Shown here piece after piece: positions 6,167 to 26,218 of a DNA stretch of 64,000 bases. The notes under the pieces were generated by a model. It made no database searches and had not been told where the DNA came from. It worked only from the letters and a program-made list of their open reading frames with translations. The DNA lies in assembly GCA_963831605.1 (NCBI GenBank), contig CAWHQR010000010.1:1073-65072 (forward strand), written 5' to 3'. Position 1 is the first letter of the stretch, and every line of letters starts with the position of its first letter. The DNA is from an uncultured Solirubrobacterales bacterium (GTDB taxonomy: Bacteria > Actinomycetota > Thermoleophilia > Solirubrobacterales > 70-9). The position numbers and the translations under genes were made by a program.

Positions 6167-6214
6167 GCCGCTACCCATGCAAAGTGGAATAGCCGCTTTG
6201 GACGAAAAGCAGCT
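6167..6214. repeat. Inverted type B fragment abutting a forward type A hairpin
   Basis: gccgctacccatgcaaagtgg aat agccgctttggacgaaaagcagct. Confidence 0.7.
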
Positions 6215-6585
6215 ATTCAGACGCGCGTTTCAAATCTGCAATGTCAGCCAGCGGGGTATTAAGAGATACGGGACGTGTGCCTTCGCGCACGGTCTCCCCC
6301 GCCCCCCATGGCCCTGCTTGGTTTCGGCTTCGGGTTCCGGGTTCGGGGTCAAGCTCGGACGAGCGGTTGATCGACATCGAGATCAACCGACACAAAGGCG
6401 TGGGGGTTTTTGTTTTTCCCTACCTCAATCGACTGGACACGCGGAATACGGGTCCGGGTGTCCCCAGCTCGAGGACGCAGGGGGGACCCACCCCCTCCCT
6501 CCTCGCTCTGTCCAAGGACGCTTTCAGCCGCTAGCTCGTCGCTAGAGGGTCCGGCGCAGCAGGCGAACCGAGTCGGCGCTCGCCT

Positions 6586-7791: not shown

Positions 7792-7794
7792 CGC

Positions 7795-8235: not shown

Positions 8236-8238
8236 CGC

Positions 8239-8661
8239 CTACTCCGACAGCCCGGCGGCTTCGAGACCATCGGCGCGGTCCGAATATTCCTCGATACGGC
8301 GGAGTTTGCCGCCCTCGAAGGTGTTGACGTGAGCCAGCTCCATGTCGATTGGAACCCCGCTTTCTGCACCGTGGCCCGAGAAGCGAACCCAGACGAACGC
8401 CCGATTGCCGTTGGTCTGGATCTCAAGCGGCTCCACCTGCAGGTCGGGATAGGCCTCGACCCATCGCCATATCTGCTGCCTCACCGCCTCGATGCCCCGG
8501 TGGATGCCGGGATCAGGGTCGCTGGCGGAGTTCACGTACACGCCGTCCGGATGCCAGACATCCAGCGAGGCGAGTTCTTGCTCGTCAACGGGATCTCGTT
8601 CGGCCCGGTTGAACCTGGCGTATCCCGTGCGAACGAAATCTTCGACGTTCTCCTCCGACAT
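8239..8661 (-). CDS. SnoaL-like / NTF2-family protein, paralogue 3
   Basis: MSEENVEDFVRTGYARFN...DGLEAAGLSE. ATG 8661 preceded by the conserved leader gagatactgcgtgggcg. Confidence 0.85.
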   Translation of the reverse strand: MSEENVEDFVRTGYARFNRAERDPVDEQELASLDVWHPDGVYVNSASDPDPGIHRGIEAVRQQIWRWVEAYPDLQVEPLEIQTNGNRAFVWVRFSGHGAESGVPIDMELAHVNTFEGGKLRRIEEYSDRADGLEAAGLSE

Positions 8662-8690
8662 CGCCCACGCAGTATCTCGCGGCGGAGTAC

Positions 8691-8708
8691 TGCTTTCCAT
8701 GCAAAGCA
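8691..8708 (-). repeat. Type B hairpin (reverse orientation)
   Basis: tgctttccatgcaaagca, 30 nt upstream (gene sense) of ATG 8661. Confidence 0.8.
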
Positions 8709-9032
8709 CCAGTGTCGTTAACAGATCGCCGCCGAGAACTTCAATACCGGGTGGAGCTCTATGGCGTTCGGCGCGACCCCGGTTTGACCGTGCGGGATGT
8801 CGAAGAAGCCCACTCCGGTCAACGTCGCACACGACAGCTAGTTCTCGAGCTGCGCGGGCTTTCTGAAGGGCTGGTGCGTTCCCGGCGCCGCCCTTCCGTT
8901 TCCTTGTCAAGAAGCTGATTGCCCAGGTGGGGAGCTTGAAGACGGCGCCGGCTGTTCCGTAGTCGAGTTGGTGGTGAAGCAACTGCGGTTTCGCCATGCA
9001 GGTGAACGACCGCAAGCAGCGTAAGTGGTCGC

Positions 9033-9500
9033 ATGGCCATCGTTCAATCTCCTGACCAGCAGGCGGACGAGATTCTGCTGCAAGAGCTGGAGCGCACGGA
9101 CGATTTGCTGCTGAAAGAGCTGGAGCGCGTGGACGAGATGCTCCTGCGGATTGTGGCCACAATCGACCTATTGCCGGAGCGAATCGCCTCTGCAAATAGG
9201 AGGGAGTTCAGGTCCGTATCAGGCAATGGAACGGGTGCAGCAGAACCGGCGCGAGGCCAGGCGTCCACTCGACCGTTCGACCCCTATGGGGAGGACGAGG
9301 TCGACCCCTATCTGGAGGACGAGGTCGAGGCCGCCGCGGACAAGAAGTCAGCGGCCAGTCAGGTGGCCACGAAAGTGGAGGGCTGGGTAGCGGGCTATGC
9401 CCCAGACTGGGAGGCGCCCAGATTCGCAACCGTCTCGCTGGCGGTTGCCTTGTTTGCGACCGCCATCGCTGTGGTCGGCTTGATCGTTGCTGTCTTTTAG
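9033..9500 (+). CDS. Hypothetical tail-anchored protein (acidic, C-terminal TM helix)
   Basis: Internal repeat LLQELERTDDLLLKELERVDEMLL. C-terminal VSLAVALFATAIAVVGLIVAVF. Locally lower GC. Confidence 0.45.
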   Translation: MAIVQSPDQQADEILLQELERTDDLLLKELERVDEMLLRIVATIDLLPERIASANRREFRSVSGNGTGAAEPARGQASTRPFDPYGEDEVDPYLEDEVEAAADKKSAASQVATKVEGWVAGYAPDWEAPRFATVSLAVALFATAIAVVGLIVAVF

Positions 9501-9528
9501 TCCGGGCGTGGAGGCAATCCTCATGACT

Positions 9529-9557
9529 GAAAAAGGGCGATAGCCCAGGTATCGCCC
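9529..9557 (-). terminator. Intrinsic terminator after paralogue 4
   Basis: Minus strand: GGGCGATA-cctgggc-TATCGCCC followed by CTTTTTC. 8-bp stem abutting the stop codon. Confidence 0.6.
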
Positions 9558-9958
9558 TACTCCGACAGCCCGGCGGCTTCGAGGGCCTTTGCGTCCTGGT
9601 GGGGGAGGAAGTTCTCCACTCGCGTAAAGATGCCGTCGTCGTCAAACGTCCAGAGGACCCAGAACTCGAGATCCATCTCGATCCCGCTCCCCGCTCCACG
9701 GGCGCGGGCATACGAGCGGACCAGAACGTTGTTGCCCTGGACCCGGAACTCGCGTGGCTGAAGCTGTTGCGACTCGAAGGCGTCGGGCTCCATCCATGCT
9801 CGAAGCGCGTCCACGCCTCTCAGCGGCGCTTGATCCCCCGCGGGGAAGAACTCAATCTCGGGATGGACCCGCTCCACCGCGGCGTCGAAGTCGCCGCGAT
9901 TGAAGGCTTCATAGCCACGCCGCACGACATCGATCATCTCCTGCTCTCGGTCAGGCAT
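9557..9958 (-). CDS. SnoaL-like / NTF2-family protein, paralogue 4
   Basis: MPDREQEMIDVVRRGYEAFNRGDFDAAV...KALEAAGLSE. Conserved leader gagatactgcgcgggcg before the ATG. Confidence 0.85.
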   Translation of the reverse strand: MPDREQEMIDVVRRGYEAFNRGDFDAAVERVHPEIEFFPAGDQAPLRGVDALRAWMEPDAFESQQLQPREFRVQGNNVLVRSYARARGAGSGIEMDLEFWVLWTFDDDGIFTRVENFLPHQDAKALEAAGLSE

Positions 9959-12566: not shown

Positions 12567-12626
12567 CCGCTGCTTTTCGGCTCCGGCGAAACCGCCGCTT
12601 TCCATGCGGCGCCTCGTCCAAAGCAC
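12567..12626 (-). repeat. Compressed/degenerate A and B hairpin cluster
   Basis: Gene sense after the stop: tgctttggacgaggcgccgcatggaaagcggcggtttcgccggagccgaaaagcagcgg. Confidence 0.6.
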
Positions 12627-13027
12627 TACTCCGACAGCCCGGCGGCTTCGAAGGCTTCCTCCTTCGTCTGGTACATCGTGAGCGAGGTCTGCTTCCCGTC
12701 GCGGAACGCGATCAGCCACGCGCTTCGCACCTCTAGGTGGATGCCGTCCCGACCCCGCATGTGTGCGACGTTCTCCACGATCACCCGGCCGTCCTCGACC
12801 TCGACCAGGTCAACGAGCTCAAACCGCATTTCCTCGAATGCCGCGAGGCGCTCTTGCCAGAACGCCCGGATTTCGTCGTGTCCCCGATAGACGCGCGCAT
12901 CGAATGCGCGGCCGTTGGACCAGTCCCAAACGGCGTCGGGGGCCCACTCCTCCAACGCCCCTTCGACGTCACGATTGTTGTACGCGGCGAAGGCGCGTTG
13001 TACCGTCTCGACGTTCTCCTCCGACAT
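12626..13027 (-). CDS. SnoaL-like / NTF2-family protein, paralogue 5
   Basis: MSEENVETVQRAFAAYNNRD...EAFEAAGLSE. Confidence 0.85.
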   Translation of the reverse strand: MSEENVETVQRAFAAYNNRDVEGALEEWAPDAVWDWSNGRAFDARVYRGHDEIRAFWQERLAAFEEMRFELVDLVEVEDGRVIVENVAHMRGRDGIHLEVRSAWLIAFRDGKQTSLTMYQTKEEAFEAAGLSE

Positions 13028-13055
13028 CGCCCACGCAGTATCTCGCGGACGGGTG

Positions 13056-13075
13056 CTGCTTTTCGTCCACAGCGG
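13056..13075 (-). repeat. Type A hairpin (reverse orientation), here in the 5' leader position
   Basis: ctgcttttcgtccacagcgg, upstream of ATG 13027 after leader gagatactgcgtgggcg. Confidence 0.75.
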
Positions 13076-13400: not shown

Positions 13401-13794
13401 ACTCCGACAACCCGGCGGCTTCGAGGGCCTGCTCTCTGCTGCCGTAATAGTCGAGGCGCACGCATTTGCCGTCTCGCAGCGTCCACACCGCAGCGTCGAC
13501 ACGTTCCACATCGACGCCACTCTGGCGTCCCCTGGCATGAACGCGGAGAACCGCGACGACGCGCTCACCAGCCTCAATGAACTCCTCCGGATCCCAACGC
13601 CAGCTCTCCCAACTGCTCTCCCAATCGGCCTGCCAACGAGCCAGTCCTTCCAACCCCCGGTACTCACCGGAGTCCGGTATGTCGTGGTCGTAGATCTCGA
13701 TCTCCGGGTCGCAAACTGCAAGAGCAGATTCCATGTCGCCGCGTAGGTACGCGTCATAGGAACGGCGCACTATCTCCACGTTCTCCTCCGACAT
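13399..13794 (-). CDS. SnoaL-like / NTF2-family protein, paralogue 6
   Basis: MSEENVEIVRRSYDAYLRGD...QALEAAGLSE. Leader gagatactgcgtgggcg. Confidence 0.85.
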   Translation of the reverse strand: MSEENVEIVRRSYDAYLRGDMESALAVCDPEIEIYDHDIPDSGEYRGLEGLARWQADWESSWESWRWDPEEFIEAGERVVAVLRVHARGRQSGVDVERVDAAVWTLRDGKCVRLDYYGSREQALEAAGLSE

Positions 13795-13822
13795 CGCCCA
13801 CGCAGTATCTCTCGGCGGAGTA

Positions 13823-13842
13823 CTGCTTTCCATGCAAAGCGG
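13823..13842 (-). repeat. Type B hairpin (reverse orientation)
   Basis: ctgctttccatgcaaagcgg, 29 nt upstream of ATG 13794. Confidence 0.8.
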
Positions 13843-13896: not shown

Positions 13897-14658
13897 CTAA
13901 GGCACGTACTCGAGGATCCGTCCCAGATCGCGGAAGCCCGCCGCCGTGTAGATCCGCTCGGCGATCGGAGTCGATTGCAGGCTTGCGGTCGAGCAGCCCC
14001 GTTCGACGGCGTCGTGGAGGTGACGTGCGGTAAGTGCGGTGCCAAGCCCTCGCCGACGTGCCGTCTCGAGAGTCGACATGTTGAAGATGCCGCAGTCACC
14101 GTCGTGGTCGAAGGCGATCGCAGTCGCGACGTGTTCTCCCCCGAGCCGCGCAGCGAGGACATGGAATGCTCTCGGGTCGGCGCCAGTGAGCAGGCCGGCG
14201 GGAACGCCGGCGATTCGCAGGTATTCACAGTACGCGGGCCAATCCAAGGGCCGAAGATCGACCTCCGGGAGAGGGAGGGAGGCGTGATCCAGCGACATGC
14301 CCATCGCCCGGGTGGTCTCCTGGACGGTATATCCGCGGCGGCGCATCTCCATCTGCATTCCGTCGTCACTCTCGTGGACCCACACGGCGTAGCGGCCGAC
14401 GCCGGCGGAGCGGTAGGAATCCTCCGCGGCGGCGACGGCCACGGCGCGCTCGGTTGGGCGGAGGTCGCGATCGATCAAGGCGTTGTTGTAGACCGCGCGC
14501 TCGGGTCCGCTGGGGAACACCCCGGCGGTGACTCCGCTCAGTCGCCTCAGTGAGGCTCCGGCCGAGCCGCGCGCGTACTCCTCCCATGAGGCCAGCAGGG
14601 TGGCGGCGCCGATCTCATACAGCTCTCCGTCACTCACGGCAGTCATGGTCGCCGCCAT
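13897..14658 (-). CDS. GNAT family N-acetyltransferase
   Basis: Acetyl-CoA motif TARRRGLGTALTARHLHDAVERGC...AAGFRDLG. Confidence 0.8.
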   Translation of the reverse strand: MAATMTAVSDGELYEIGAATLLASWEEYARGSAGASLRRLSGVTAGVFPSGPERAVYNNALIDRDLRPTERAVAVAAAEDSYRSAGVGRYAVWVHESDDGMQMEMRRRGYTVQETTRAMGMSLDHASLPLPEVDLRPLDWPAYCEYLRIAGVPAGLLTGADPRAFHVLAARLGGEHVATAIAFDHDGDCGIFNMSTLETARRRGLGTALTARHLHDAVERGCSTASLQSTPIAERIYTAAGFRDLGRILEYVP

Positions 14659-14671
14659 CTTGCCGTGCTGC

Positions 14672-15826
14672 CTAACGCCTGATCAATGCGATCTTTGTGG
14701 ACCGGGTGTTCAACACGCCACCGTCGGGGGTGTAGGTGATCGTTGGCTTGACGGCGACCCTCCCGGTCCGAATGAGCTTCCTCAGCTTTGCCCCTCTCGC
14801 TCGGATCACCAGCAGCACCGCGGTTTGGGCGCGGCCGGCCGTCACCCGAACGGCCTTCGCAGCCGCGAGTCCGTCGCCGGACAGGGCCAGCTCGCCGGGT
14901 GCGGGGACGGTCACGGGCAGCTGTGCCGTGCCCCGCCGCTGGTTCAGCTTCGGCTTGCCTAGCGTGAACACGTTCGAGGGTGGCGCCGGGGAGGCGGCTG
15001 GCGGAGGCACGTCGACCGCGACTCCACACGGGGCCGTGGCGCCGCTGATGAAGCCCTGATTGGCGCCCGTCCCATCGAGGTTGGCGCGGCCGATCGTCCC
15101 GTCGTCGCCGTTCGCCCAGTAGATGTGCCCGCCGTCCACCGCCACGCCGCATGGGCGGTTCCCGCCGGTGATGAAGCCCTGGTCGGCGCGCGAGCCATCG
15201 AGATTGGCGCGACCGATCGTCCCGTCGTCACCGTTGGCCCAGTAGATGTGCGCGCCGTCGACCGCCACCCCGCAGGGGACGTGGGCGCCGGCGATGAAGC
15301 TCTGGTTCACCCCCGAGCCGTCGAGGTTGGCGCGACCGATCGTGTCGCCCGTCTGGTTGGCCCAGTAGAGATGCGCTCCGTCGACCGCCACTCCGCAGGG
15401 GAAGCTGCCGCCGACGACGAGGCCCTGGTTGACCCCCGAGCCGTCGAGGTTGGCGCGGCCGATCGTCCCGTCGATGAGGTTGGCCCAGAAGACGTGCGCG
15501 CCGTCGACCGCGACCCCGCAGGGATTGTTTCCCGCGCCGATGAAGCCGGGGTTCACGCCGGCGCCGTCGAGGTTGGAGCGGCCGATCGTCCCGTCTCCGC
15601 TGTCGCCCCAGTAGAGGTGCGCTCCGTCGGCCGCCACCCCGCAGGGGTTGGGCCCGGCGGTGATGAAGTTCTGGTTGACCCCGGTCCCGTCGATGTTGGC
15701 GGTCCCGATCGTGGTGCCCTTGTCGTTGGCCCAGTAGATGGAGGCAGCAGCACGCGGGGCGAAGGCCAGGCCGAGAAGGAGGACCGCGGCGAGCAGCAGG
15801 GGCACGGGTGAGCGCGAGCCGATCAT
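14672..15826 (-). CDS. Secreted six-bladed YWTD/LDL-receptor-class-B-like beta-propeller with C-terminal ...PTITYTPDGG... module
   Basis: Signal peptide. Six 41-aa repeats, [IL]YWAN..DGTIGRANLDGSGVNQ.F.....PCGVAVDGAH. C-terminal module shared with 1594..2451. Confidence 0.8.
   Translation of the reverse strand: MIGSRSPVPLLLAAVLLLGLAFAPRAAASIYWANDKGTTIGTANIDGTGVNQNFITAGPNPCGVAADGAHLYWGDSGDGTIGRSNLDGAGVNPGFIGAGNNPCGVAVDGAHVFWANLIDGTIGRANLDGSGVNQGLVVGGSFPCGVAVDGAHLYWANQTGDTIGRANLDGSGVNQSFIAGAHVPCGVAVDGAHIYWANGDDGTIGRANLDGSRADQGFITGGNRPCGVAVDGGHIYWANGDDGTIGRANLDGTGANQGFISGATAPCGVAVDVPPPAASPAPPSNVFTLGKPKLNQRRGTAQLPVTVPAPGELALSGDGLAAAKAVRVTAGRAQTAVLLVIRARGAKLRKLIRTGRVAVKPTITYTPDGGVLNTRSTKIALIRR
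14986..15739 (-). repeat. Six tandem ~123-bp coding repeats (propeller blades)
   Basis: Periodicity visible in protein and DNA (recurring gtcgaccgccaccccgcagggg / ggcgcgaccgatcgtcccgtcgtc strings). Confidence 0.8.
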
Positions 15827-16248
15827 GAGCTCGAGGTGCCGCTGATCGGAGTTCCCTGCGCAGAGACCAGGCGCCAGTTCCCGCCGTCGGCCTGAAAGAC
15901 GTGGGTGTAGCGGCTGGCGAGCTCAGTGGCGGATCCGGCTCCGCCGCAAAAGGAGATCGCGGTACGGCCGACGACGATGCCGGTTTCGGGGCCGGTCAGG
16001 CGGGTCACCGACTCTTCCGGGAACGTCTTGATCTCCTGGAAGATCACGGCGCCGCCTGCGATGGCCAGGAGGAACGCTCCGCGGCGGTGCACGGAGCCGC
16101 TCGCGACATCGACGATCAGGAAGTCCTCGGCCAGCAAAGACTCGAGAGCCGGGATGTCGCCGGCCAGCAGCGCCTGGAAGAAGTCCGAGTCTGCCCGCTG
16201 CAGGCCTTCGATCTGCTGCTGCGTCACGGAACCGTCGGGGAGGCTCAT
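15823..16248 (-). CDS. DUF4440/SnoaL-like NTF2-fold protein
   Basis: MSLPDGSVTQQQIEGLQRADSDFFQALLAGDIPALESLLAEDF... ATG 16248 with GGGAG upstream. 4-nt overlap (ATGA) with 14672..15826. Confidence 0.7.
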   Translation of the reverse strand: MSLPDGSVTQQQIEGLQRADSDFFQALLAGDIPALESLLAEDFLIVDVASGSVHRRGAFLLAIAGGAVIFQEIKTFPEESVTRLTGPETGIVVGRTAISFCGGAGSATELASRYTHVFQADGGNWRLVSAQGTPISGTSSS

Positions 16249-16451
16249 CTCCCGCTCCCTTGGATCTTCGTGCCGAAGGTCAGCGATGCGACATCGACAG
16301 CGGCCAGCTCCAGCTCGTAGCGGGCCATCTCGCGGAGGGTCTCCGGCGGGTGCAGCTTGTCGGCGCCTGACCGCTCGAGGACCGTCGCGAGCTTGTCGGC
16401 GGCCTCGTCGAGGATCTCGGCGACCTCCAGGATTTCCTCTGCGCGTCGCAT
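16245..16451 (-). CDS. Hypothetical small helical protein (68 aa)
   Basis: Tightly packed with both neighbours: 4-nt overlap downstream, 3-nt gap upstream. No recognised domain. Confidence 0.45.
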   Translation of the reverse strand: MRRAEEILEVAEILDEAADKLATVLERSGADKLHPPETLREMARYELELAAVDVASLTFGTKIQGSGR

Positions 16452-16454
16452 CAG

Positions 16455-16682
16455 TCAGTCCTGGCAATCGATCAGGGCGAGCGCCGTTGTGTGCGGCTTG
16501 CACTCGGCCGCGGTCGGTTCGTTGGCGGGCGGCTCGAGCAGCCAGCCGGCCTCGGGCGGATCGGCGAGTACCAGCACGCCTCGGGCGGCGCGCGGAAGCT
16601 CGTAGCGTCCGTTGGTGAATGTCGCGTCTGGTGCGTCTGTTCGCATGGCAGTCAGCATCCGCGCACAGGCGTCACAACGCAT
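16455..16682 (-). CDS. Hypothetical small protein (75 aa; may start at ATG 16646, 63 aa)
   Basis: First gene after operator site A. The annotated ATG lies inside the motif itself, so the start is doubtful. Confidence 0.35.
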   Translation of the reverse strand: MRCDACARMLTAMRTDAPDATFTNGRYELPRAARGVLVLADPPEAGWLLEPPANEPTAAECKPHTTALALIDCQD

Positions 16683-16716
16683 CGGTGACTTCGCCAGTCG
16701 AGATCGCCAGTCACCG
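16679..16716 (-). promoter_or_regulatory. Operator-like motif, copy A (GCATCGGTGACT-TCGCCAGTC-N4-TCGCCAGTC)
   Basis: One of three near-identical ~36-nt copies, all oriented toward the downstream gene. Confidence 0.6.
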
Positions 16717-16750
16717 GGAAAGGTCTCGATCTGCTCGAAGTCGGCCCTGC

Positions 16751-16778
16751 CGCCGCGCTCGCAGGCGCGAGCGCGGCG
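16751..16778 (-). terminator. 12-bp perfect GC hairpin after the His-rich peptide gene
   Basis: cgccgcgctcgc-aggc-gcgagcgcggcg. No U-tract. Confidence 0.5.
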
Positions 16779-16799
16779 ACTAGTGCCGGCGCCGGCCGG

Positions 16800-16985
16800 C
16801 TAGATGCGACCGTCCCCGTCGCTCGGGCCGCCGTTGTTGTCGGCATCGTGGTCGCCGCCGTTGTGCTGCGGGATGCCGTGGTGGTGATGGTGGTGTCCGG
16901 CGATTGCGGCCGGCACGGCCGCGGCTGCGGCGATTCCGAGGACCGCCAGGGCCGCTCCGATTCGGGTCTTGATAGATGAGAGCAT
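16800..16985 (-). CDS. Small secreted His/Asp-rich peptide (61 aa precursor)
   Basis: AAGGAAAGGAG before the ATG. Signal peptide MLSSIKTRIGAALAVLGIAAAAAVPAAIA, then GHHHHHHGIPQHNGGDHDADNNGGPSDGDGRI. Confidence 0.65.
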   Translation of the reverse strand: MLSSIKTRIGAALAVLGIAAAAAVPAAIAGHHHHHHGIPQHNGGDHDADNNGGPSDGDGRI

Positions 16986-17013
16986 CGGAACTCCTTTCCT
17001 TGCTTGATGGGAT

Positions 17014-17640
17014 TCATGTGAGGAAGCTCGATATGGCGTGCTCGATCGCGGGTCCCTGCCCCTGCCACTGCTCGGGCGGCGCCGCGCCGACGATCACCGT
17101 CGTGGCGCTCCGCCCAGCGACGATGCAGGCGATCTCGCGGTAGGGGTGCCCGCTAGACGAGGTGTAGGTGTCGATCACGCAGGAGCCGTGCGCGTGCCGG
17201 AATCGAAGGCTCGTCGCGGAAGCGACGGGCTCCACGTTCACGTCCCCCTCGTCGCGGTTGTGCTCGACCCGGAAGGTGCTCCACGCCGCCAACGTCTCCT
17301 CCCCCTGCTGTGGCGTCGCGTTGAGATACCCGCGGATCTCTCCATCCCCAGCCCGGAGGGCGGCCGTCACAGTGCCGGGGTCAGACCTGATCGCGCGCCA
17401 GCCGGCCGGATAGGCAAGGCTTGCCGCGCCGTCCGGCAGCCGGCTCTGCTGCCAGCCGCCCGGCAGCGGCGAGGGGCGAAGCCAGCCGAACGCCTGCGCC
17501 TGGCTGGCCGCGGGGGGCGACGCACTTCCGCCGTATCCGCCGCAACCGGCGACCGCGAGGGCGATCGTGACGATCGCGGCCGCGACCATCGCCATCAGAA
17601 GCGACTTGCGTGGGGATGCGGTTCCTTGCTTGGTGGACAT
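17014..17640 (-). CDS. Lipoprotein, unknown function
   Basis: Lipobox LAVAGC after a TM-like leader. 28 nt upstream of the His-rich peptide gene. Confidence 0.75.
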   Translation of the reverse strand: MSTKQGTASPRKSLLMAMVAAAIVTIALAVAGCGGYGGSASPPAASQAQAFGWLRPSPLPGGWQQSRLPDGAASLAYPAGWRAIRSDPGTVTAALRAGDGEIRGYLNATPQQGEETLAAWSTFRVEHNRDEGDVNVEPVASATSLRFRHAHGSCVIDTYTSSSGHPYREIACIVAGRSATTVIVGAAPPEQWQGQGPAIEHAISSFLT

Positions 17641-17718
17641 GAGGCTTCCCTCCTCGCGCTTGCGTTCTCGCGATGGCGTGGATTACGGCGATCAGGATCC
17701 GCCCGCAAGGGCGGGAAC

Positions 17719-17754
17719 GCATCAGTGACTTCGCCAGTCGGAGTCGCCGGTCGG
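17719..17754 (-). promoter_or_regulatory. Operator-like motif, copy B (GCATCAGTGACT-TCGCCAGTC-N4-TCGCCGGTC)
   Basis: 78 nt upstream of ATG 17640 and just downstream of the LAL regulator stop. Confidence 0.6.
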
Positions 17755-17781
17755 CGCCCGGCGCCTAAGAGATGGGCCCGC

Positions 17782-20559
17782 CTAGCCCACCACCGCCGCT
17801 TTGTCGGACGGCTCCTGCTCCGGCACATCCATCTGCACCAGCTCCGTCCGCGAGGCGACGCCGAGCTTGCTGAAGACCTTTCGCAGGTGGTAGTCGATGG
17901 TGCGAGGGCTCAAGTAGAGCTGGGCGGCGACCTCGCGGTTGGTCATCCCGGAGGCGACCAAGCCGGCGATCTGCAGCTCCTGAGGCGTGAGCTGGTCGAG
18001 CGTCGAGGGGTCCCGCTCCCTGGCCTTCTCCCCTGTCGCACGGAGCTCCGCTTCGGCGCGCTCCTCCCACGGGGCCGTGCCGACCTGGCGGAAGAGATCG
18101 GCCGCCCTTCGCAGGTGCGGGCGTGCCTCACGCCGCTGGCGCTGGCGCCGGAGCCACTCGCCGTAGAGGAGCTCGGTGCGCGCCATCAGGAATGGCGAGA
18201 CGAACCCGTCCGGCGCCAGCGCCTCCTCGAATTGCTCGCGCACGTCCCCATCCCCCACCAGCGCCCGGCAGCGCGCCAGCACGGACCGGCGGAGCGCGGA
18301 GGGCGAGTACCGCACCCAGCTCTTGTAACGGTCGAATGGCTCCGCCGTCTCGTCGAGCCGCCCGGACCGCGCAGCCGCCTCGATCAGATCCGAGATCGAC
18401 CAAAGCCCGATCAGTGGGTTGAATTCGGGCCGCTCAATTGCCGATAGAGGCAGAAGGCGGTCGGTCGCCTCGTCAGGCCTTCCCAGCGTGAGATCAAGCA
18501 TCCCGAGCATCCATTCGGCGTGGGCAAGGATCAGGGTCCCGCCCCCGATCGCGGCCAGCTGGACTGCCTCGTCGAGATGGCTGCGGGCCGCCGACTCGTC
18601 CCCTCGCAGCGAGTCGAGTAACGCGGTCACGGTCAGGTTCCAACCCGCGCCCGAGCGGTGTCCGAAGTCGCTCGCGAGCCTGATTCCCTCCTCCGCGGCG
18701 GATCGCGCGAGGTTGAAGCGCCCGAGCCCGACCAGCGCGTTCGCCTGCGCCCAGAGCGCCAGCGGGAGCATGCTGAGGAGTCCGCGCTCTCGCGCAATGG
18801 CCACCGCACGACTCGAGTGCGGAAGACCGTCTGCGAAGTTGCCCCCGGTGAGACCCATGGTCGCCAGAAGCGACGCCGTGACCAGAGCGCCCGGATCCTC
18901 GAGCTGCTCGCCGCGCTGAACCGCCTCCCGCACGAGCCTTTCGGCTCGTTCATGGTCGCCGGCCAGCTCCGCCGCCATCCCGGTCAGCGTGGCGATGCGG
19001 AAGCGGTCGAGCTCGTCGTTTGGCTCGATCGCGCTGGCGCGGGCGCCGATGTCAACGCTCAGTGCGGATTCTCCAGCGAAGACCGCCGCCTCATGCGCCT
19101 CGCTCAAGGCGTCGAGCTGGAACGAGGGGCTGTCGCTGGTCTCGGCCGCCTCGACCAGCACGGCGAAGGCGCCGCGAAGATCGCCCGTTCTGGCCTCGAT
19201 CACGCCGCGCAGATAGAGGAGCTCGGCGCGGAGCCCATCCGGCGCGAGCGGGAGAACCCTCGCGATCAAGGCCCGGGCCTGATCCGGCTCGCCGGCCGCC
19301 CAGGCCGCGTGAGCAGCAGCCGCGAGCCTGCGCATCCGGCTGTCATCGCTGCCCGAAAGCTCCGCCGCGCGGGCGAACGCAGTCGCGGCCGAAGCGTGCC
19401 CCGCGCGCGATTCGTATCGACGCGCCGAGGCTTCGAGCGCGGCGGCGACCTCTTCGTCGGCGCTGACGCTCGCGAGCGCCTGGTGCCAAACGCGGCGATC
19501 GGTGTGGTGGTCGGCGCTCAGCGCCGCTGCGAGGGCCGCGTGCCCGGCCCGGCGCTGGCTGTGGGTCGACGACTCCAGCAGGGCGGAGCGCACCAGCGGG
19601 TGCCGAAACTCGACCGCGCCGTCCGCGATCCGGAGGAGCCCGTCGCGCTCGGCGGCATCCAACGCATCGGCTGGCAGGCCTGCTTCCTCCGATGCCCGCA
19701 TCACGGTTGCGACCTCGTCTCGGTCGTCGAGCGCGGCGATCAGCAGAGCGGTCTGCGTCTCGGCGGACAGCCGCTCCACGCGCTGCACGAAGGCCGCCCG
19801 CAATCCGGAGCTCAAAGGGGTCGTCTCGGGGAGGGCGGCGCGACCCTGGAGCTGCTGTGCGCTCAGGCCACTCGGCAACTCGAGCAGAGCGAGAGGGTTT
19901 CCGGCGGCTTGCGCGAGCAGCCACTCGCGCACGGGTCCTGCTGCCGTAGGAGCGCTTGCCTCGAGGAGCCGATCGGCGGCGTCGGCATTGACCCCCTCGA
20001 GCACGACCTCCGGCAGTCCCGGCGTTGCGATCTCACGCCCTGCTCCCTCACGCACGACGAAGAGCATCGCCACCGGCTCGGCCCCGAGTCTGCGCGCGCT
20101 GAAGAGGAGCGCTTCCACCGAGGCGACGTCGAGGAACTGCACGTCGTCGACCAGACATAGGACCGGTTGATCGTCGGCCGCCGCGGCAAGCAGTCTCAGC
20201 GCCGCTGCGCAAACGAGCAACCGATCCGAGCCGCCCGATGGCGCGAATCCGAGAGCCGCCGAGAGCGCATCGGCCTGGGCCCGGGGCAACTCATCGAGCT
20301 TTCCGATGATCGGCCGCAGGAGCCCTTCCAGTCCCGCAAAACCCAAATCCGATTCGGCCTCGACACCGGCGATCCGAAGCACCGTTCGCCCCCGGCTGCG
20401 CTCCGCGGCGTAGCTCAGAAGAGCAGTCTTGCCGATGCCGGGCTCGCCCCGTAGGACGAGCGAGCTGCTCTCTCCGCCGGCCGAGACCTCCAGCAGGCGG
20501 TCGATCGCGGCGCACTCCTCCTCGCGGCCAACCAGTGCGGCGGAGTCGGGTGTCGCCAT
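17782..20559 (-). CDS. LAL-type regulator 1 (N-terminal P-loop ATPase, TPR-like middle, C-terminal LuxR HTH)
   Basis: Walker A GEPGIGKTALL. C-terminus LTPQELQIAGLVASGMTNREVAAQLYLSPRTIDYHLRKVFSKLGVASRTEL. Confidence 0.9.
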   Translation of the reverse strand: MATPDSAALVGREEECAAIDRLLEVSAGGESSSLVLRGEPGIGKTALLSYAAERSRGRTVLRIAGVEAESDLGFAGLEGLLRPIIGKLDELPRAQADALSAALGFAPSGGSDRLLVCAAALRLLAAAADDQPVLCLVDDVQFLDVASVEALLFSARRLGAEPVAMLFVVREGAGREIATPGLPEVVLEGVNADAADRLLEASAPTAAGPVREWLLAQAAGNPLALLELPSGLSAQQLQGRAALPETTPLSSGLRAAFVQRVERLSAETQTALLIAALDDRDEVATVMRASEEAGLPADALDAAERDGLLRIADGAVEFRHPLVRSALLESSTHSQRRAGHAALAAALSADHHTDRRVWHQALASVSADEEVAAALEASARRYESRAGHASAATAFARAAELSGSDDSRMRRLAAAAHAAWAAGEPDQARALIARVLPLAPDGLRAELLYLRGVIEARTGDLRGAFAVLVEAAETSDSPSFQLDALSEAHEAAVFAGESALSVDIGARASAIEPNDELDRFRIATLTGMAAELAGDHERAERLVREAVQRGEQLEDPGALVTASLLATMGLTGGNFADGLPHSSRAVAIARERGLLSMLPLALWAQANALVGLGRFNLARSAAEEGIRLASDFGHRSGAGWNLTVTALLDSLRGDESAARSHLDEAVQLAAIGGGTLILAHAEWMLGMLDLTLGRPDEATDRLLPLSAIERPEFNPLIGLWSISDLIEAAARSGRLDETAEPFDRYKSWVRYSPSALRRSVLARCRALVGDGDVREQFEEALAPDGFVSPFLMARTELLYGEWLRRQRQRREARPHLRRAADLFRQVGTAPWEERAEAELRATGEKARERDPSTLDQLTPQELQIAGLVASGMTNREVAAQLYLSPRTIDYHLRKVFSKLGVASRTELVQMDVPEQEPSDKAAVVG

Positions 20560-20597
20560 CGATCCATCGTAGAACCGAACCGCGGTATGCGTAAGCG

Positions 20598-23345
20598 TCA
20601 GACGGGCTCCGGCTCCGGTACGCCCATCTGCATCAGCTGGGTCCGCGAGGCCACACCGAGCTTGCTGAAGACCTTGCGCAGGTGATAGTCGATCGTCCGC
20701 GGGCTCAGATAGAGCTGCTCGGCGACCTGGCGATTGGTCATCCCGGAGGCGACCAGCCCGGCAATCTGGAGCTCCTGCGGGGTGAGCTCGTCAAGCGTCG
20801 AGGGGTCGCGCTTCCTCGCGGTCTCCCCGGTCGCCCGAAGCTCCACTTCGGCGCGCTCCTCCCAACGCGGTGCGCCGACCTGCCGGAAGAGGTCGGCCGC
20901 CCGGCGCAGGTGAGGCCGTGCCTCACGCCGCGCACGATTGCGCCGCAGCCGCTCGCCGAAGAGCAGCTCGGTGCGGGCCTGCTCGAATGGCGAGAGGCCC
21001 GTGCCGGCCTGCAGCGATGCCTCGAATTGCCCGCGCCATTCTCCTTCGCTCACAACCGCACGGCAGCGCGCCAGCAGGGACAGGCGCGCCGGGCTTGGCG
21101 AATCCTCCACCCACTCCCCATAGCGCTCGAGCCGATCGACGGTCTCCTCAAGCCGCTCGGAGCGTGCCGCCGCCTCGATCAGGTCCGGGATCGACCAGAG
21201 GCCGGTGAGCGGATTCGACTCCGCTCGCTCGCCGTCGCTCACGATCAGCAGGCGGTCAGTCGCCTCGCTGGGTCTGCCCAGCGTCAGCTCGAGCAAGCCG
21301 AGCGCCCACATTGCGAACTCGCCGATCAGCACGGCGCCACCGTTCGCGGCGTGCTTCATGGCCTCGTCGGCGTGGTCGCGCCCCCGCGCCTCGTCTCCCC
21401 GCATCGCGTCGAGCAGCGCGAGGTTGGCCAGGTTCCGGCCGACACCCCAATGGTGTCCGAAGTCGCTGGCGAGCCTGATCCCCTCCTCCGCGGCGGCGTA
21501 GGCGAGCTTGAAGCGGCCATGGTCGGCCAGGGCGGCCGCCTGGTGCCCAAGCGCGACTGGCAGGACGCTGAGCAGCGCCCGTTCCCGCGCAATCGCGACT
21601 GCACGCGCGGCGTGGGGCAGGCCGTCTCTCGGCATGTTTCCGATCGTTGCGGCGCGTGCCGCCCAGATCAGCGCGTACGGATCCTGGAGCTCGACCGCCC
21701 GCTGGCTTGCCTCCAGCAGAAGCGGCGCGGCTCGTTGGTTGTCGCCGGCCAGCTCGGCTGCGATCCCGGTGAGGGCGGCGACTCTGAACCGATCGGTCTC
21801 GCTCCGCGGTTCGATCCGGCCGGCGCTTGCGGCGAGGTTGGCAGCCTGGGCGGAGTCGCCGGCGTACATGGCGGCCTCGCATGCTTCGGTCAACAGCTCG
21901 AGAGTGAGCGACCCGTCCTCGCTGGCTTCCGCCGCCTCGACCAGGATGGGGACGGCACCGCGGGCGTCACCGGTTCCCGCCTCGATAACACCCTGCAGAT
22001 ACAGAAGCCTCGGCCGCACCTCGCCTGTCGCAAGCGGTAGTGCCCGAGCGATCGTCTCTCGAGCACGCTCGGGCTGCCCGGCGGCCCACGCCGCCTCGGC
22101 GGCGGCGGCGAGACGGCCGATTCGGTGGCCGTCATCGGCACTCAATTCGGCCGAGCGAAGGAACGCCGTGGCAGCCGAGGCGTGCCCGCCGCGCGCCTGA
22201 TACCGACGCGCTGATGCCTCCAGCGCGCCGGCGACCTCCTCGTCCGTCGTCAGCGTCGCCAGCGCCTGGTGCCACGCGCGACGGTCGGCGTCGGCGCTGC
22301 CATTCAGCGCCGAAGCCAGCGCCAGGTGTGCGCTTCGCCGCTGGCTGTGCGTCGACGACTCGAGCAGCGCGGAACGCACCAGCGGGTGGCGAAACGCGAT
22401 TCCGCCGTCGACCACGCTGAGGAGACCAGCCTGCTCGGCATGGTCGAGCGCATTCGCGGGTAAACCCGCCTCGCCCGCCGCGCGAACCACCGTGGCCACC
22501 TCGTCGGCGTCGTCGAGCGCCGCAATCAACAACGCGCTGCGTGTCTCGGTGGGCAATTGGTCGATACGCCCCAGGAAGGCGGTCCGTAGTCGCGCGCTCA
22601 GGGGCGTCGCTTCGGGTAGGGCGGCGCGGCCCAGTAGCTGTGAGGCGGACAACCCGTTCGGCAGCTCCAGCAGCGCAAGTGGGTTTCCGGCCGCTTCGGC
22701 AAGCAACCACTCGCGCACAGGATCGGCCGCCGCCGGAGCGCTCACCTTCAGGAGCTGCACGGCGGCTTCCGTGCCCACGCCCTCGACCATCAGCTCGGGC
22801 AGGTCCGGGGCGTTGAAACCTCGGCCAGCGCCTTCCCGGACCGCGAACAGCAGCGACACCGGCTCGGCCCCGAGTCTGCGCGCGCTGAAAACGAGGACCT
22901 CGACCGACTCCGCGTCCAGGAACTGCGCGTCGTCGATCAGACAGAGGAGCGGACGCTCATCCGCGGCGGCGGCGAGCATGCTGAGCGTCGCCGCCGACAC
23001 GAGCAGGCGATCGGCTCCGTGGGAAGGAGCAAGCCCGAGCGCCGCCGAGAGCGCGGCCGCCTGCGTCTCGGGCAGCTCCCCGAGCTTGTCCACGACTGGC
23101 CGTAGCAGCCCGAAGAGACCTCCAAAGCCGAGATCCGATTCCCCCTCAACGCCCGCCGTTCGGAGCACCAGCCCCGCACCGGCGCGTTCGGCTGCATAGC
23201 CGAGCAGAGCCGTCTTGCCGATTCCCGCCTCGCCGCGCAAAACGAGGGAGCTGCTCTCTCCGGCCGCCGAAGCCTCCAGCAGGCGGTCGATCGCGGCGCA
23301 CTCCTGCTCGCGGCCAACCAGCGCGCCGGAGTCGGCTGTCGCCAT
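20598..23345 (-). CDS. LAL-type regulator 2 (tandem paralogue)
   Basis: Start set at MATADSGALVGREQECAAIDRLLE by alignment to regulator 1. Walker A GEAGIGKTALL and the same LuxR HTH. The 5' leaders of both genes also align. Confidence 0.9.
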   Translation of the reverse strand: MATADSGALVGREQECAAIDRLLEASAAGESSSLVLRGEAGIGKTALLGYAAERAGAGLVLRTAGVEGESDLGFGGLFGLLRPVVDKLGELPETQAAALSAALGLAPSHGADRLLVSAATLSMLAAAADERPLLCLIDDAQFLDAESVEVLVFSARRLGAEPVSLLFAVREGAGRGFNAPDLPELMVEGVGTEAAVQLLKVSAPAAADPVREWLLAEAAGNPLALLELPNGLSASQLLGRAALPEATPLSARLRTAFLGRIDQLPTETRSALLIAALDDADEVATVVRAAGEAGLPANALDHAEQAGLLSVVDGGIAFRHPLVRSALLESSTHSQRRSAHLALASALNGSADADRRAWHQALATLTTDEEVAGALEASARRYQARGGHASAATAFLRSAELSADDGHRIGRLAAAAEAAWAAGQPERARETIARALPLATGEVRPRLLYLQGVIEAGTGDARGAVPILVEAAEASEDGSLTLELLTEACEAAMYAGDSAQAANLAASAGRIEPRSETDRFRVAALTGIAAELAGDNQRAAPLLLEASQRAVELQDPYALIWAARAATIGNMPRDGLPHAARAVAIARERALLSVLPVALGHQAAALADHGRFKLAYAAAEEGIRLASDFGHHWGVGRNLANLALLDAMRGDEARGRDHADEAMKHAANGGAVLIGEFAMWALGLLELTLGRPSEATDRLLIVSDGERAESNPLTGLWSIPDLIEAAARSERLEETVDRLERYGEWVEDSPSPARLSLLARCRAVVSEGEWRGQFEASLQAGTGLSPFEQARTELLFGERLRRNRARREARPHLRRAADLFRQVGAPRWEERAEVELRATGETARKRDPSTLDELTPQELQIAGLVASGMTNRQVAEQLYLSPRTIDYHLRKVFSKLGVASRTQLMQMGVPEPEPV

Positions 23346-23379
23346 CGACCCATCGTAAGGCCGAACTGCGGTCTGCATA

Positions 23380-23413
23380 GACCGGCGACGCCGACTGGCG
23401 AAGTCACCGATGC
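23380..23413 (+). promoter_or_regulatory. Operator-like motif, copy C (reverse complement of A/B, pointing at CDS 23474)
   Basis: gaccggcgacgccgactggcgaagtcaccgatgc. 60 nt before ATG 23474. Followed by TTCGCG-N17-TAGAGA. Confidence 0.6.
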
Positions 23414-23473
23414 GTTCGCGGGCTCGCGCACCGACCCTAGAGACGCTGCGCACCCAACCCAAGGAGCACACAG

Positions 23474-24106
23474 ATGAGAACCACGAAGACCGATTCACGA
23501 CGACGACGCCTTCGAGTCAGCCCCGCGCTGGTCGTGGCCTCAATCGCCCTGTTCGCGGCGATGAGCGGCTTTGGCTACGCGGCGGTGAATATGAAGGCGA
23601 ACAGCGTCAAGACGCGGAACCTCAGTCATGCGGCGGTGACCACCGACAAGATCGCCGACGGCGCCGTCACCACTCCGAAACTGGCGCCTGACGCCGTCGC
23701 GCCGAGCGCGACGAACGCAGCCAACGCGGCGAACGCCGCCAGGCTCGGTGGGGCCGCTCCGGGCCAGTGTCAGACCGGCTGGCTCAAGGCCTCGATCGTG
23801 GTTGACACCTCGACCGTGTCGGACGCGACGCCGGACGCAACCATTCCCGGAGCGTTCGACTGCGCCAGCAAGGCCGCCGATGCGGTGACGATCCACCGGA
23901 TCGCCACTGGGCGGTACACGCTCACCCTCGCCGGCCTTGACTCGGGTGTCGCGATCTCGTCGAGCGCAAACGTTGGCGGCGGAGCGGCGAACGTCGTCAC
24001 GGCGGCCAGCAAGGTCGACGCTCAGGGCAAGGTGAATCTGAACGTCTGGAACAACAGCGATGCAGCCCTCGTCGACGGCAAGACGGTCTCTCTGATCGTT
24101 TTCTGA
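23474..24106 (+). CDS. N-terminally anchored surface protein with ~11-residue repeats
   Basis: AAGGAG before the ATG. Anchor LVVASIALFAAMSGFGYAAV. Repeats NSVKTRNLSHAAVTTDKIADGAVTTPKLAPDAV. Paralogue of 1..380 and of the N-terminus of 3942..4487. Confidence 0.7.
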   Translation: MRTTKTDSRRRRLRVSPALVVASIALFAAMSGFGYAAVNMKANSVKTRNLSHAAVTTDKIADGAVTTPKLAPDAVAPSATNAANAANAARLGGAAPGQCQTGWLKASIVVDTSTVSDATPDATIPGAFDCASKAADAVTIHRIATGRYTLTLAGLDSGVAISSSANVGGGAANVVTAASKVDAQGKVNLNVWNNSDAALVDGKTVSLIVF

Positions 24107-24126
24107 GTCGGCGGCTCGGAGTTCGA

Positions 24127-24152
24127 GGGCCCCGGCCGAAGAGCCGGGGCCC
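24127..24152. terminator. 10-bp GC hairpin between convergent genes
   Basis: GGGCCCCGGC-cgaaga-GCCGGGGCCC. Confidence 0.5.
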
Positions 24153-24188
24153 GCCACTCCGACGGAGTCATTCCTGGCCGTGAGCGCC

Positions 24189-25644
24189 TCAGTCATCGAG
24201 GCCGGCGGTGACGCCGGCGCCCCATGCGATTCCCTCGTCCGGTCCGCTCGAGCGAGAGTCGAGTTGACGCGCGGCTCTGACCGCTGCGCGTCCGAGTCCG
24301 TTGGCGTAGGTGGGGAACGAGAAGGGAACCAGCGCGAGGTGTTCGACCATCGTGCCGGACGCCATGGCGAGTGCCGCCAGCTGAGCGAGTTCGACCGCAC
24401 GCTCACCCACGATGTGGCAGCCGAGGATCGTGTGGTTCCCGCGGTCGACGACGAGCTTGCAAAACCCCGTGGGGCGACCGTCGATGATCGGGCGCGGCAT
24501 GGAGCCGAAGCCCTCAGCGCCCACGACGACGTCATGGGTCTCGCGAGCGGCCGCCTCGGTGAGTCCGACAGAGGCGTATTCGGGATCGGTGAAGCTGCCC
24601 AGAGGGCTGACCTCCGGGGGGAGTACCTCGGTGCTTCCCACGGTGGCATTGGTCGCTGCGAGGTAGGCCTCGCGTGCGGCCTCGTGCACGACCATGATGT
24701 GCCCGGTGACGTCTCCCGCGGCGTAGATGCCCGGGGCCGTCGTACGCAGCTGGGAGTCCACCTTGATGTAGCCGCGGGGATCGGTCTCAACTCCCGCGAC
24801 CTCAAGGCCGAGGCGTTCGGTGTCGGCGACCCAGCCAACCGCGACCACAGCCACGGTCGCGTCGATTTCTGCCGGTGCATCGCTCCCGGAGCGGACGAGT
24901 CGCACTCCGGAGGACGACGGCTCGAAGCGCTCGATCGTTCCGGCGTGCTCGAGGACGCGCACGCCGGAGGCCTCCAATGCAGTGCTCATCGCTTCGGCGA
25001 CCTCCTCGTCCTCGCTCATGAGGATGCGGGGCGCCGCCTCGAACAGGGTGACCCGCGACCCGAAGGCGTTGAAGATCGAGGCGACCTGGACTCCGGTTGC
25101 ACCGGCGCCGACCACGAGCAGCGAGTCGGGCACCGATTCGAGGCGCCAGGCGTCGCTGTGTGTGGAGGTCAGCTCGAAGCCGGGCACGGGGAGTTGCCGA
25201 GAGACACCTCCGGTGCACACGATGATCTGCGCGGCTCGCAGTCGGGTTCCGTGCTTCACTCTCGATTACATGCGGCGCGACGAAGCGGACCGCTCCGGCA
25301 TTTTCATAGAGGGTCACGCCCGCCTGCTGGAACTCGTCACGGAAGAGCGCGTGCTCGCGCACGACGCCGGTGACCTCGCGAACGCGCGCAAGTAGACGGC
25401 GATAGTCGAGCGTGGGCTCGCCGGCGCTGATCCCGTACTGCTCGAGTTGCCGCGCCTCCCGCATCAGGCGCGCCGCGTGGGCCAAGGTCCGCACAGGCAC
25501 CGGCCCGTCGTTGGCGGCCATTCCCCCGAGTTCGTCGCGCGTGACGAGAGCCGTTCGAGCTCCGAGTCGCGCCGCACGCAGCGCAGCGACGACGCCCGCG
25601 GGTCCAGCGCCGATCACGATCACACCGAAGTCGTCAGCCGGCAC
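24189..25644 (-). pseudogene. Class I pyridine-nucleotide-disulfide oxidoreductase (dihydrolipoamide-dehydrogenase-like), frame-broken and lacking the CxxxxC
   Basis: N-terminal part in ORF 24802..25644 (VIVIGAGPAGVVAALRAARLG...). The rest is in ORF 24189..25259. The frames meet at ~25258-25266 (..APHVIE | VKHGTRLRAAQIIVCTGG..). The expected GGTCxNxGCxP reads GGMAANDGPVP. Confidence 0.7.
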
Positions 25645-25729
25645 CCTCGTAGCGTCGCATTTCCTGGACCCGCTGCCGGTCGAGACACAGCAGATAGCCG
25701 ACTCTCGTCAGAGCCCCAGCCCCAGGAGG

Positions 25730-26218
25730 ATGACCGGACGGCGCTCTACGCTCGCTGCTGTGCTGGAGTTGAGCTTCGGCGACCTCCGGGAGCAGTTCGT
25801 GTTCGGCCTGGTCGACGGCATCAACGGTGCCGCGGGCCTGGTGATCGGGCTGCTCGGGTCGAGCGCCTCTTCGGCCATCATTCTGACGGCGCTGACGGCC
25901 CGGGCCGGGTCGAGCGCGGTGTCGATGGCCGGGGCGCAGTACCAGTCCGACCAGTCCGAGCTCCCGCGCAAGCTCAGGCTCGGGAGGGTCGCCGCGATGG
26001 GCGGCGGCTACTTGACCTCGGCGCTGTTGCCGGGCCTGGGGTTCGCGGTCGGGATCGAGGTCGGGGTGGCGGTGTTCGTCCCCTCGGCGGCTGTGATCCT
26101 GGTCGTGATCGCGTGGGCCCGCCACCGCCGCGCGGGCTGGGCGAAGGCGGTCCTGACGACGCTCGCGATCTTCGCGATGGCGATCGGCGCGGGGCTACTC
26201 GCCTCGGCGGTCGGCTAG
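25730..26218 (+). CDS. VIT1/CCC1-family membrane protein (short form)
   Basis: CAGGAGG before ATG 25730. LREQFVFGLVDGINGAAGLV...SSAVSMAGAQYQSDQSE fits the VIT family pattern. C-terminal TM helices. Confidence 0.65.
   Translation: MTGRRSTLAAVLELSFGDLREQFVFGLVDGINGAAGLVIGLLGSSASSAIILTALTARAGSSAVSMAGAQYQSDQSELPRKLRLGRVAAMGGGYLTSALLPGLGFAVGIEVGVAVFVPSAAVILVVIAWARHRRAGWAKAVLTTLAIFAMAIGAGLLASAVG

Follow-up and report, generated by a model that had tools for sequence, protein, structure and literature searches.

The stretch analysed here, a 64,000-nt window from an uncultured Solirubrobacterales bacterium (assembly GCA_963831605.1, contig CAWHQR010000010.1, positions 1,073 to 65,072 of the forward strand), carries two tandem genes for LAL (ATPase-TPR-LuxR) regulators, LAL1 and LAL2, accompanied by three copies of a conserved non-coding element, designated A, B and C. 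Our analysis indicates that each copy is a composite module in which a predicted operator is fused to a core promoter, and that the LALs probably act, by analogy with MalT, as activators of these promoters through an array of half-sites, a reading to which we assign a probability of about 0.75. The three local transcription units facing the copies, coding mostly for cell-envelope proteins, would constitute a small and ordinary regulon. An earlier reading of this DNA (hereafter the first-pass annotation) had proposed an operator for the adjacent LALs and a local regulon of three promoters, and this proposal is supported by the recurrence of the motif in relatives, the phylogenetic footprint, the invariance of the LAL recognition helix and the history of the LAL duplication.

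All three copies were found in place by direct reading of the sequence, and A, B and C each face a gene. In the window, exact matches to the 15-mer core occur at the three copies only, and exact matches to the double-repeat pattern are restricted to the same positions. A 37-nt position weight matrix (PWM) built from related sites gave scores of 53.6-57.0 bits for the three copies, with no other position of the 64 kb above 12 bits and a maximum of 6.7 bits in shuffled sequences (30 shuffles). The uniqueness of the exact matches, together with the gap in PWM score to the rest of the window and to the shuffles, excludes chance as the origin of the three copies. Copies B and C form a 59-nt inverted repeat, 83% complementary, around the LAL pair. 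The picture of a dispersed repeat with many intragenic copies was not found either: the 64 kb hold three copies, all at gene starts beside the LALs, and strict matches in a species-wide genome scan numbered at most three per metagenome-assembled genome (MAG), nearly all of them against LAL genes.

That degenerate-pattern scan covered one genome per species for 185,579 species and matched 60 stretches, and 26 further stretches from Solirubrobacterales or Thermoleophilia, a few of them overlapping, were fetched with about 8-20 kb around each match. They contained 52 further sites, giving 55 in all with those of the window (>39 bits). A site divergent from a LAL gene and starting 31, 32 or 35 nt from its ATG was found in 19 of the 55 cases, and a site 14-69 nt past a LAL stop codon, in the same direction, in another 19; in 15 cases the LAL is found in another part of the locus, typically one gene away, and two sites have no LAL within 8 kb. 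Among weak, chance-type matches (20-39 bits), a LAL was nearby in 1 of 22. The motif is present in all four loci picked by LAL homology alone (70-88% identity, long contigs), in both positions (divergent from the LAL start and just past the LAL stop). Full-length motifs were confined in the scan of 185,579 species to Solirubrobacterales, Thermoleophilia or unclassified Actinomycetota MAGs. The pairing of motif and LAL recurs with a fixed geometry over all 27 sources with a high-scoring site (the window and the 26 loci, a few of them overlapping), and since relatives keep the same arrangement, the local regulon appears to be real. The pairing persists for LALs only 49-56% identical to LAL1 (loci L009, L014, L050 and L055). 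Target genes vary and move between genomes, with the LAL as the constant partner of the motif: the gene for the anchored repeat protein facing copy C lies divergent in some genomes and downstream in others, and the genes faced by distant LALs code for an ABC ATPase or an MFS transporter.

Matches outside the clade (about 25 Microcoleus genomes, Cupriavidus, Streptomyces and others) were rejected as fortuitous or coding: they score 22-31 bits, are devoid of the flanking GAC and GCGTT and have no LAL. Those in Microcoleus (L007, L016, L018, L021, L023, L028 and about 20 further loci) correspond to one conserved sequence, probably coding, that fits the degenerate pattern (CAGCGGCGACTTTCACCGGCGACATCGCCGTTGCGAC) and makes up a class of false positives. 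An orphan operator-promoter with no LAL within 8 kb was observed in L032 (3279-3386), followed only by a 14-codon open reading frame (ORF) and then facing a convergent gene, for an ABC permease, at its 3′ end; the neighbour on the divergent side encodes an anchored-repeat-like protein, and the orphan promoter might yield a small or antisense RNA.

Comparison with the related genomes revealed that the element contains three half-sites of the form AYYGGCGA. Half-site 2 is preceded by a direct half-site 1, 13 bp upstream, and forms with half-site 3 an 8-2-8 inverted repeat whose core in most relatives reads GGCGA-A-N-TCGCC. Half-site 3 is degenerate in the window, with TCACC where relatives have TCGCC, and the first-pass annotation consequently caught a direct repeat only. 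The 9-nt repeat with 13-bp spacing that it described is real, the 13 bp being measured from start to start, but its structure was incomplete: a third, inverted half-site had been overlooked, and the element as a whole is predicted to comprise operator and core promoter. Similarly, the motif itself stands but not its proposed length of about 36 nt, for the similarity runs over about 59-66 nt and takes in a −10-like hexamer. The distances to the ATG given for copies B and C (78 and 60 nt) were correct.

Downstream of half-site 3 the modules contain the sequence GCGTT, 16 non-conserved nt and the −10-like hexamer GAYNCT. The −10 boxes were identified by phylogenetic footprinting, and in 51 unique sites they proved conserved together with the half-sites and GCGTT, unlike the N4 and N16 spacers. 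The A and T at hexamer positions 2 and 6 (A2/T6) occur at offset 16 in 46 of the 51 sites, with 0-2 sites at the other offsets tested except for six at offset 25, and this pair is the signature of a housekeeping-type −10 box. Position 1 is G instead of T in the large majority of sites, resulting in a suboptimal −10, and the target promoters have no recognisable −35 hexamer. In the conserved 63-aa target class, the ATG follows the hexamer by 6-7 nt in several distinct loci, which points to leaderless mRNAs with transcription starting at the ATG. The geometry of the promoters takes these leaderless ATGs as the inferred transcription start sites (TSSs). In module A and its orthologues, 34 nt separate the 3′ end of half-site 3 from the leaderless ATG, and the half-sites are 10 and 13 bp apart; the inverted repeat would be centred near −43 with its 3′ edge at −35, and half-site 1 near −61.5. 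On this basis, a predicted promoter-proximal site ending at about −35 with repeated sites upstream would reproduce the layout of a MalT-type promoter.

Readings of GCGTT and GCCGAT as ECF-type or sigma-28-type elements were discarded: the distances to candidate −35 elements are unsuitable, no information resides in the bases preceding the hexamer, and A2/T6 are informative. A generic sigma-70 promoter and terminator scan over 14-26 kb returned nothing and is uninformative, because its E. coli consensus rules do not suit this 67.5% GC actinobacterium.

Both LALs match the PF13191 AAA_16 family (58.7 and 61.0 bits; cut-off 32.6), with a Walker A motif visible in their alignment (GEPGIGKT and GEAGIGKT), and the PF00196 GerE family (60.5 and 60.2 bits; cut-off 23.5). 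LAL1 also matches TPR_12 (39.5 bits; cut-off 30.1) and reaches 24.6 bits with TPR_MalT, under the cut-off of that model; LAL2 has no TPR match above threshold, yet it aligns with LAL1 over the full length. The testable defining features of LAL/STAND regulators (NTPase, sensor region and helix-turn-helix (HTH) domain) are thus predicted in both proteins. We rejected their assignment as MalT orthologues, given that the NCBIfam equivalog model NF003420 aligned with the HTH alone at 46.2 and 38.6 bits, far under its cut-off of 537, and that no mal genes lie nearby. LAL1 and LAL2 are paralogues, 69% identical overall, 88% in the HTH segment and 56-61% in the sensor.

Every LAL associated with an operator has the same recognition helix (LSPRTIDYHLRKVF), even where overall identity falls to 49%, and two other GerE-type proteins encoded in these loci have a differing one. 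Since LAL1 and LAL2 share an identical helix, both should use the same operators; as the sensor is where they diverge most, the signals to which they respond may differ. LAL homologues numbered in the thousands, with 120 at 68% identity or more, and the subfamily is very common in soil metagenomes. An exact look-up of LAL1 gave no match, and its locus was later reached through the copy-C target (L065). In this independent assembly, positions 4312-9872 (ENA ERZ25039478 contig_15284) correspond to 17782-23345 of the window, with the LALs broken into five ORFs of 495, 349, 244, 230 and 403 aa, presumably through frameshift errors; the genes of the window are intact.

The sequence TACGAT/TAGGAT-N6-7-ATG is present in 17 of the 17 distinct divergent spacer sequences listed, so the LAL mRNAs are probably leaderless. 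A tandem duplication including the 5′ leaders, as first proposed, is borne out by the homology of the LALs and of their leaders of about 35 nt, which indicates that the duplication took the leader along. The leader similarity ends where the operator would begin, with the duplication boundary exactly at the operator edge. No PWM site is present upstream of LAL1, where the 3′ end of LAL2 occupies that place. As the similarity stops at the operator edge, LAL1 appears to have kept its promoter and lost its operator. Module C would be shared with the leaderless promoter of LAL2 itself (TACGAT-N6-ATG). Its half-site 1 falls within the −35 region of that promoter, and LAL2 is therefore probably autoregulated, positively or negatively.

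The interpretation of the LALs as activators is based on the co-occurrence of LAL and operator, the invariant helix, an inverted repeat suited to dimers of GerE-type HTH domains and the MalT-like geometry. According to this model, the STAND ATPases of the LALs would multimerise on ATP and inducer, by analogy with MalT, their HTH domains would bind the half-site array cooperatively, and the bound proteins would recruit RNA polymerase to promoters that have no usable −35 element. The output would be three units: the anchored repeat protein, a PsbP-fold lipoprotein with a His-rich peptide, and a leaderless four-gene operon that codes for two small cytoplasmic proteins, the DUF4440 protein and the secreted YWTD propeller.

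Several points weigh against this interpretation. The whole case is made of sequence and comparative inference, and the 55 sites are phylogenetically non-independent, many of them being orthologous. The degenerate half-site 3 makes the inverted repeat of the window weaker than in relatives. The operator lies at 31, 32 or 35 nt from the LAL start, a variation that does not follow helical turns and counts against a fixed activation geometry at the LAL promoter. The conserved GCGTT is without explanation and is replaced by GCGAG or GCGAC in a more distant LAL clade. Regulon members far from the LALs are under-sampled, since about 8-20 kb were read around each match, and two orphan sites exist. 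Furthermore, an operator over the −35 region could equally serve repression.

It is unlikely, albeit conceivable, that the LALs bind this same operator mainly as repressors, occluding the polymerase until an inducer releases or remodels the complex. Such a role would agree with the operator 3′ edge at −35, with half-site 1 in the −35 region of the LAL promoter, and with the LAL SCO6993, for which repression is reported, with binding to palindromes in its own promoter and in those of its targets (PMC9628970). However, the lack of a recognisable −35 hexamer and the suboptimal −10 in most sites are typical of activator-dependent promoters, the geometry agrees with that of the activators MalT and Actinoplanes MalT (PMC7567727), and STAND regulators of this architecture are mostly activators (PMC4381067). 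We consider it quite improbable that a different factor, such as an alternative sigma or another regulator, recognises the block and that the LALs merely belong to the same conserved neighbourhood. The binding of the LALs to the motif is predicted from sequence, GCGTT is conserved at about −34 to −30, outside any half-site, and the two orphan sites have no LAL within 8 kb; all three are compatible with another factor. On the other hand, the LAL is the sole constant neighbour while targets come and go, the association extends to LALs barely half identical to LAL1 (49-56%), and the recognition helix is invariant together with the half-site. In addition, the A2/T6 pair of the hexamer belongs to housekeeping-type −10 boxes, and three half-sites with an inverted pair fit a regulator with HTH domains, dimeric or oligomeric, and do not fit the −35 element of a sigma factor.

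The inverted arrangement of B and C around the LAL pair, the same bracketing in relatives such as L052 and L043, and the frequent tandem duplication of LALs of this family (L004, L030 and the window) would also be expected of terminal inverted repeats or recombination sites at the ends of a mobile or recombining cassette. Nevertheless, this origin is very improbable: transposases, recombinases and target-site duplications were not seen at these loci, extra copies such as copy A lie in direct orientation one gene further, conservation extends outward into the −10 box at fixed spacing and into start codons, and the variable distance to the LAL stop (14-69 nt) does not resemble the boundary of an element. 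Finally, that the motif is a transcribed cis-regulatory RNA (a leader or riboswitch) has a negligible probability, for although the N16 spacer can fold short GC hairpins in some copies (e.g. copy B), its sequence is not conserved, the ATG of the leaderless class at 6-7 nt past the hexamer leaves the motif upstream of the transcript, and Rfam covariance models over 14000-26000 gave no match at or above gathering threshold and, at E <= 1, one irrelevant 24-bit match inside the lipoprotein gene. Altogether, none of the four alternatives is favoured by the data.

Table 1. Features of the LAL locus (window coordinates; motif copies are written in gene orientation).
Feature	Coordinates	Strand	Description
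Copy A	16676-16712	minus	GACTGGCGATCTCGACTGGCGAAGTCACCGATGCGTT
Copy B	17716-17752	minus	GACCGGCGACTCCGACTGGCGAAGTCACTGATGCGTT
Copy C	23380-23416	plus	GACCGGCGACGCCGACTGGCGAAGTCACCGATGCGTT
Module A	16654-16712	minus	Predicted half-sites 16704-16711, 16691-16698 and inverted 16681-16688; GCGTT 16676-16680; N16; −10-like GATGCT 16654-16659; ATG 16646 7 nt downstream, leaderless
Module B	17694-17752	minus	Predicted half-sites 17744-17751, 17731-17738 and 17721-17728; GCGTT 17716-17720; −10-like GATCCT 17694-17699; 29 nt past LAL1 stop; would drive lipoprotein gene
Module C	23380-23438	plus	Predicted half-sites 23381-23388, 23394-23401 and 23404-23411; GCGTT 23412-23416; −10-like GACCCT 23433-23438; divergent, 35 nt from LAL2 ATG; would drive gene 23474
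LAL1	17782-20559	minus	925 aa; AAA_16 ATPase, TPR, GerE/LuxR HTH
LAL2	20598-23345	minus	915 aa; AAA_16 ATPase, TPR region, GerE/LuxR HTH
LAL1 leader	20560-20597	minus	−10 TACGAT 20566-20571, 6 nt, ATG 20559; homologous to LAL2 leader
LAL2 own promoter	23346-23357	minus	−10 TACGAT 23352-23357, 6 nt, ATG 23345 (leaderless)
Unit C gene	23474-24106	plus	210-aa N-terminally anchored repeat protein, no known family
Unit B gene 1	17014-17640	minus	208-aa lipoprotein, lipobox LAVAGC
Unit B gene 2	16800-16985	minus	61-aa secreted peptide, His6 run and GIPQHNGGDHDADNNGGPSDGDG tail
Hairpin	16751-16778	minus	14-bp GC-rich stem, z = −3.07, 22 nt past His-rich ORF, no U-tail
Unit A gene 1	16455-16646	minus	Leaderless 63-aa protein (TNGRYELP...GVLVLADPPEAGW), no signal peptide
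Unit A gene 2	16245-16451	minus	68-aa helical protein (MRRAEEILEVAEILDEA...), no signal peptide
Unit A gene 3	15823-16248	minus	141-aa DUF4440/SnoaL-like protein
Unit A gene 4	14672-15826	minus	384-aa YWTD (LDL-receptor class B) beta-propeller, signal peptide

Regarding the target units, export signals are present in four of the seven products and absent from the other three, and the initial view that all targets are exported holds for the former only. Five of the seven have no family in Pfam or NCBIfam, and neither a biosynthetic cluster nor any other recognisable pathway was found around the module. Among the target families of relatives, that of the anchored repeat protein ranks second in frequency (11 sites), and the AlphaFold model of the protein was too poor for use (mean pLDDT 54). 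The lipoprotein of unit B is confidently modelled (pLDDT 85.6) with a predicted PsbP/Mog1-type fold, like that of the mycobacterial envelope proteins MTC28, Apa and LpqN, and its pairing with the gene for the His-rich peptide is conserved in relatives. ORFs for such peptides, or for proteins with their tail, were located at 16800-16985 in the window, 11765-11944 in L001, 13809-14000 and 13014-13178 in L002, and 3009-3191 and 2250-2393 in L015. After 6-8 His residues the peptides end in an invariant tail, GIPQ(H/N)NGGDxDADNNGGPSDGDG, which also closes a short lipoprotein ORF in two relatives; His run and tail together look like a calcium- or metal-binding module, with no family assignment. The hairpin reported between units B and A is a real structure and likely a terminator.

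Unit A had been assigned a start at either 16682 or 16646, of which 16646 is retained and 16682 dropped, in agreement with the gene calls of L065, the GC3 periodicity and the leaderless geometry. The 63-aa protein is conserved in at least 14 related loci. Its ORF shares the reading frame of the 68-aa ORF, from which it is split only by TGA-CTG-ATG (16449-16457, minus strand); this stop is kept in relatives, and the L065 assembly calls the same two genes. Within the propeller gene (14672-15826), the YWTD/LDL-receptor class B blades are encoded by five tandem repeats of 123 nt (15010-15801; 65-80% identical). A 96-nt repeat (79% identical) occurs at 12980-13075 and 13747-13842 in two neighbouring minus-strand ORFs, one of which (12626-13027) is SnoaL-like, and arrays of two to eight SnoaL_2/DUF4440 genes were observed near LAL loci in relatives (L001 3370-4185; L002 16284-21223).

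We found no description in the literature of this LAL operator-promoter module for this lineage. The data point to a known type of mechanism, namely a LAL regulon, well defined and conserved, in soil actinobacteria that are abundant and uncultured, and constitute a solid and useful prediction and not a new kind of mechanism. Few LAL/STAND transcription factors have a defined operator, and for a large LAL subfamily the comparative data provide a sharp predicted operator together with the whole of the promoter architecture. Regulon members thereby become predictable in uncultured Solirubrobacterales, and several unannotated secreted or small protein families are joined in one predicted co-regulated set, offering a first clue to their function. 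A more tentative and on balance doubtful extension is that the expanded LAL family of Solirubrobacterales, with one invariant recognition helix, one operator, diverging sensors and several paralogues per genome, frequently in tandem as in the window, forms a many-sensors-to-one-operator network. In that case, many sensors would converge, possibly as mixed oligomers, on the same few envelope-protein promoters, the LAL gene bracketed by outward-facing operators would be a unit that duplicates and reshuffles its target genes, and an abundant uncultured soil lineage would possess a signal-integration network.

Operators of NarL/GerE-type HTH domains are '7-2-7' inverted heptamers. Half-sites 2 and 3, inverted with a 2-bp spacer, are likewise what a GerE-type HTH dimer would be expected to bind; unlike in the NarL/GerE type, there is an extra direct half-site 13 bp upstream, and the putative regulator is a 900-aa STAND protein and not a response regulator. 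The likeness to MalT of E. coli and Klebsiella includes the protein, with a STAND ATPase, a superhelical-repeat sensor and a LuxR HTH, and the promoter, with several short boxes including direct repeats, a proximal box at about −35 and a weak −35 element. MalT boxes in E. coli are placed at −34.5/−35.5 (summarised in PMC7567727 and PMC4381067), and MalT, given inducer and ATP, forms multimers that bind its boxes cooperatively (PMC4381067), a behaviour that is extended here to the LALs by analogy. In contrast, the MalT box is GGA(T/G)GA, which differs from the GGCGA found here within AYYGGCGA, and no maltose genes are present. Streptomyces LALs such as SCO6993, PikD, RapH and NysRI have the same protein architecture (PMC9628970), but they act on antibiotic pathways, whereas no biosynthetic cluster is present here. 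SCO6993 binds short palindromes, also in its own promoter, and no consensus operator could be derived for it, in contrast with the sharp consensus that comparative data yield here (PMC9628970).

The closest parallel is MalT of Actinoplanes sp. SE50/110, also an actinobacterial LAL encoded within its own regulon, where it is an activator (PMC7567727), as the LALs described here probably are. Its palindrome, which overlaps the −35 and whose end lies at 34.4 ± 1.0 nt from the TSS, controls neighbouring genes with little annotation (PMC7567727). Both systems would thus have an inverted-repeat operator over the −35 with its 3′ end at about 34 nt from the TSS (predicted in our case), poorly annotated targets, and a motif and genes kept in related genera with a shuffled gene order. 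They differ in the operator, which is TCATCC-N5-GGATGA in Actinoplanes and three AYYGGCGA half-sites (direct plus 8-2-8 inverted) in these uncultured Solirubrobacterales, and in the size of the regulon, with 17 TSSs and about 40 genes as compared with 3 promoters and 9 genes. A further difference is that the LAL gene of the present system is predicted to be leaderless and is bracketed by outward-facing operators.

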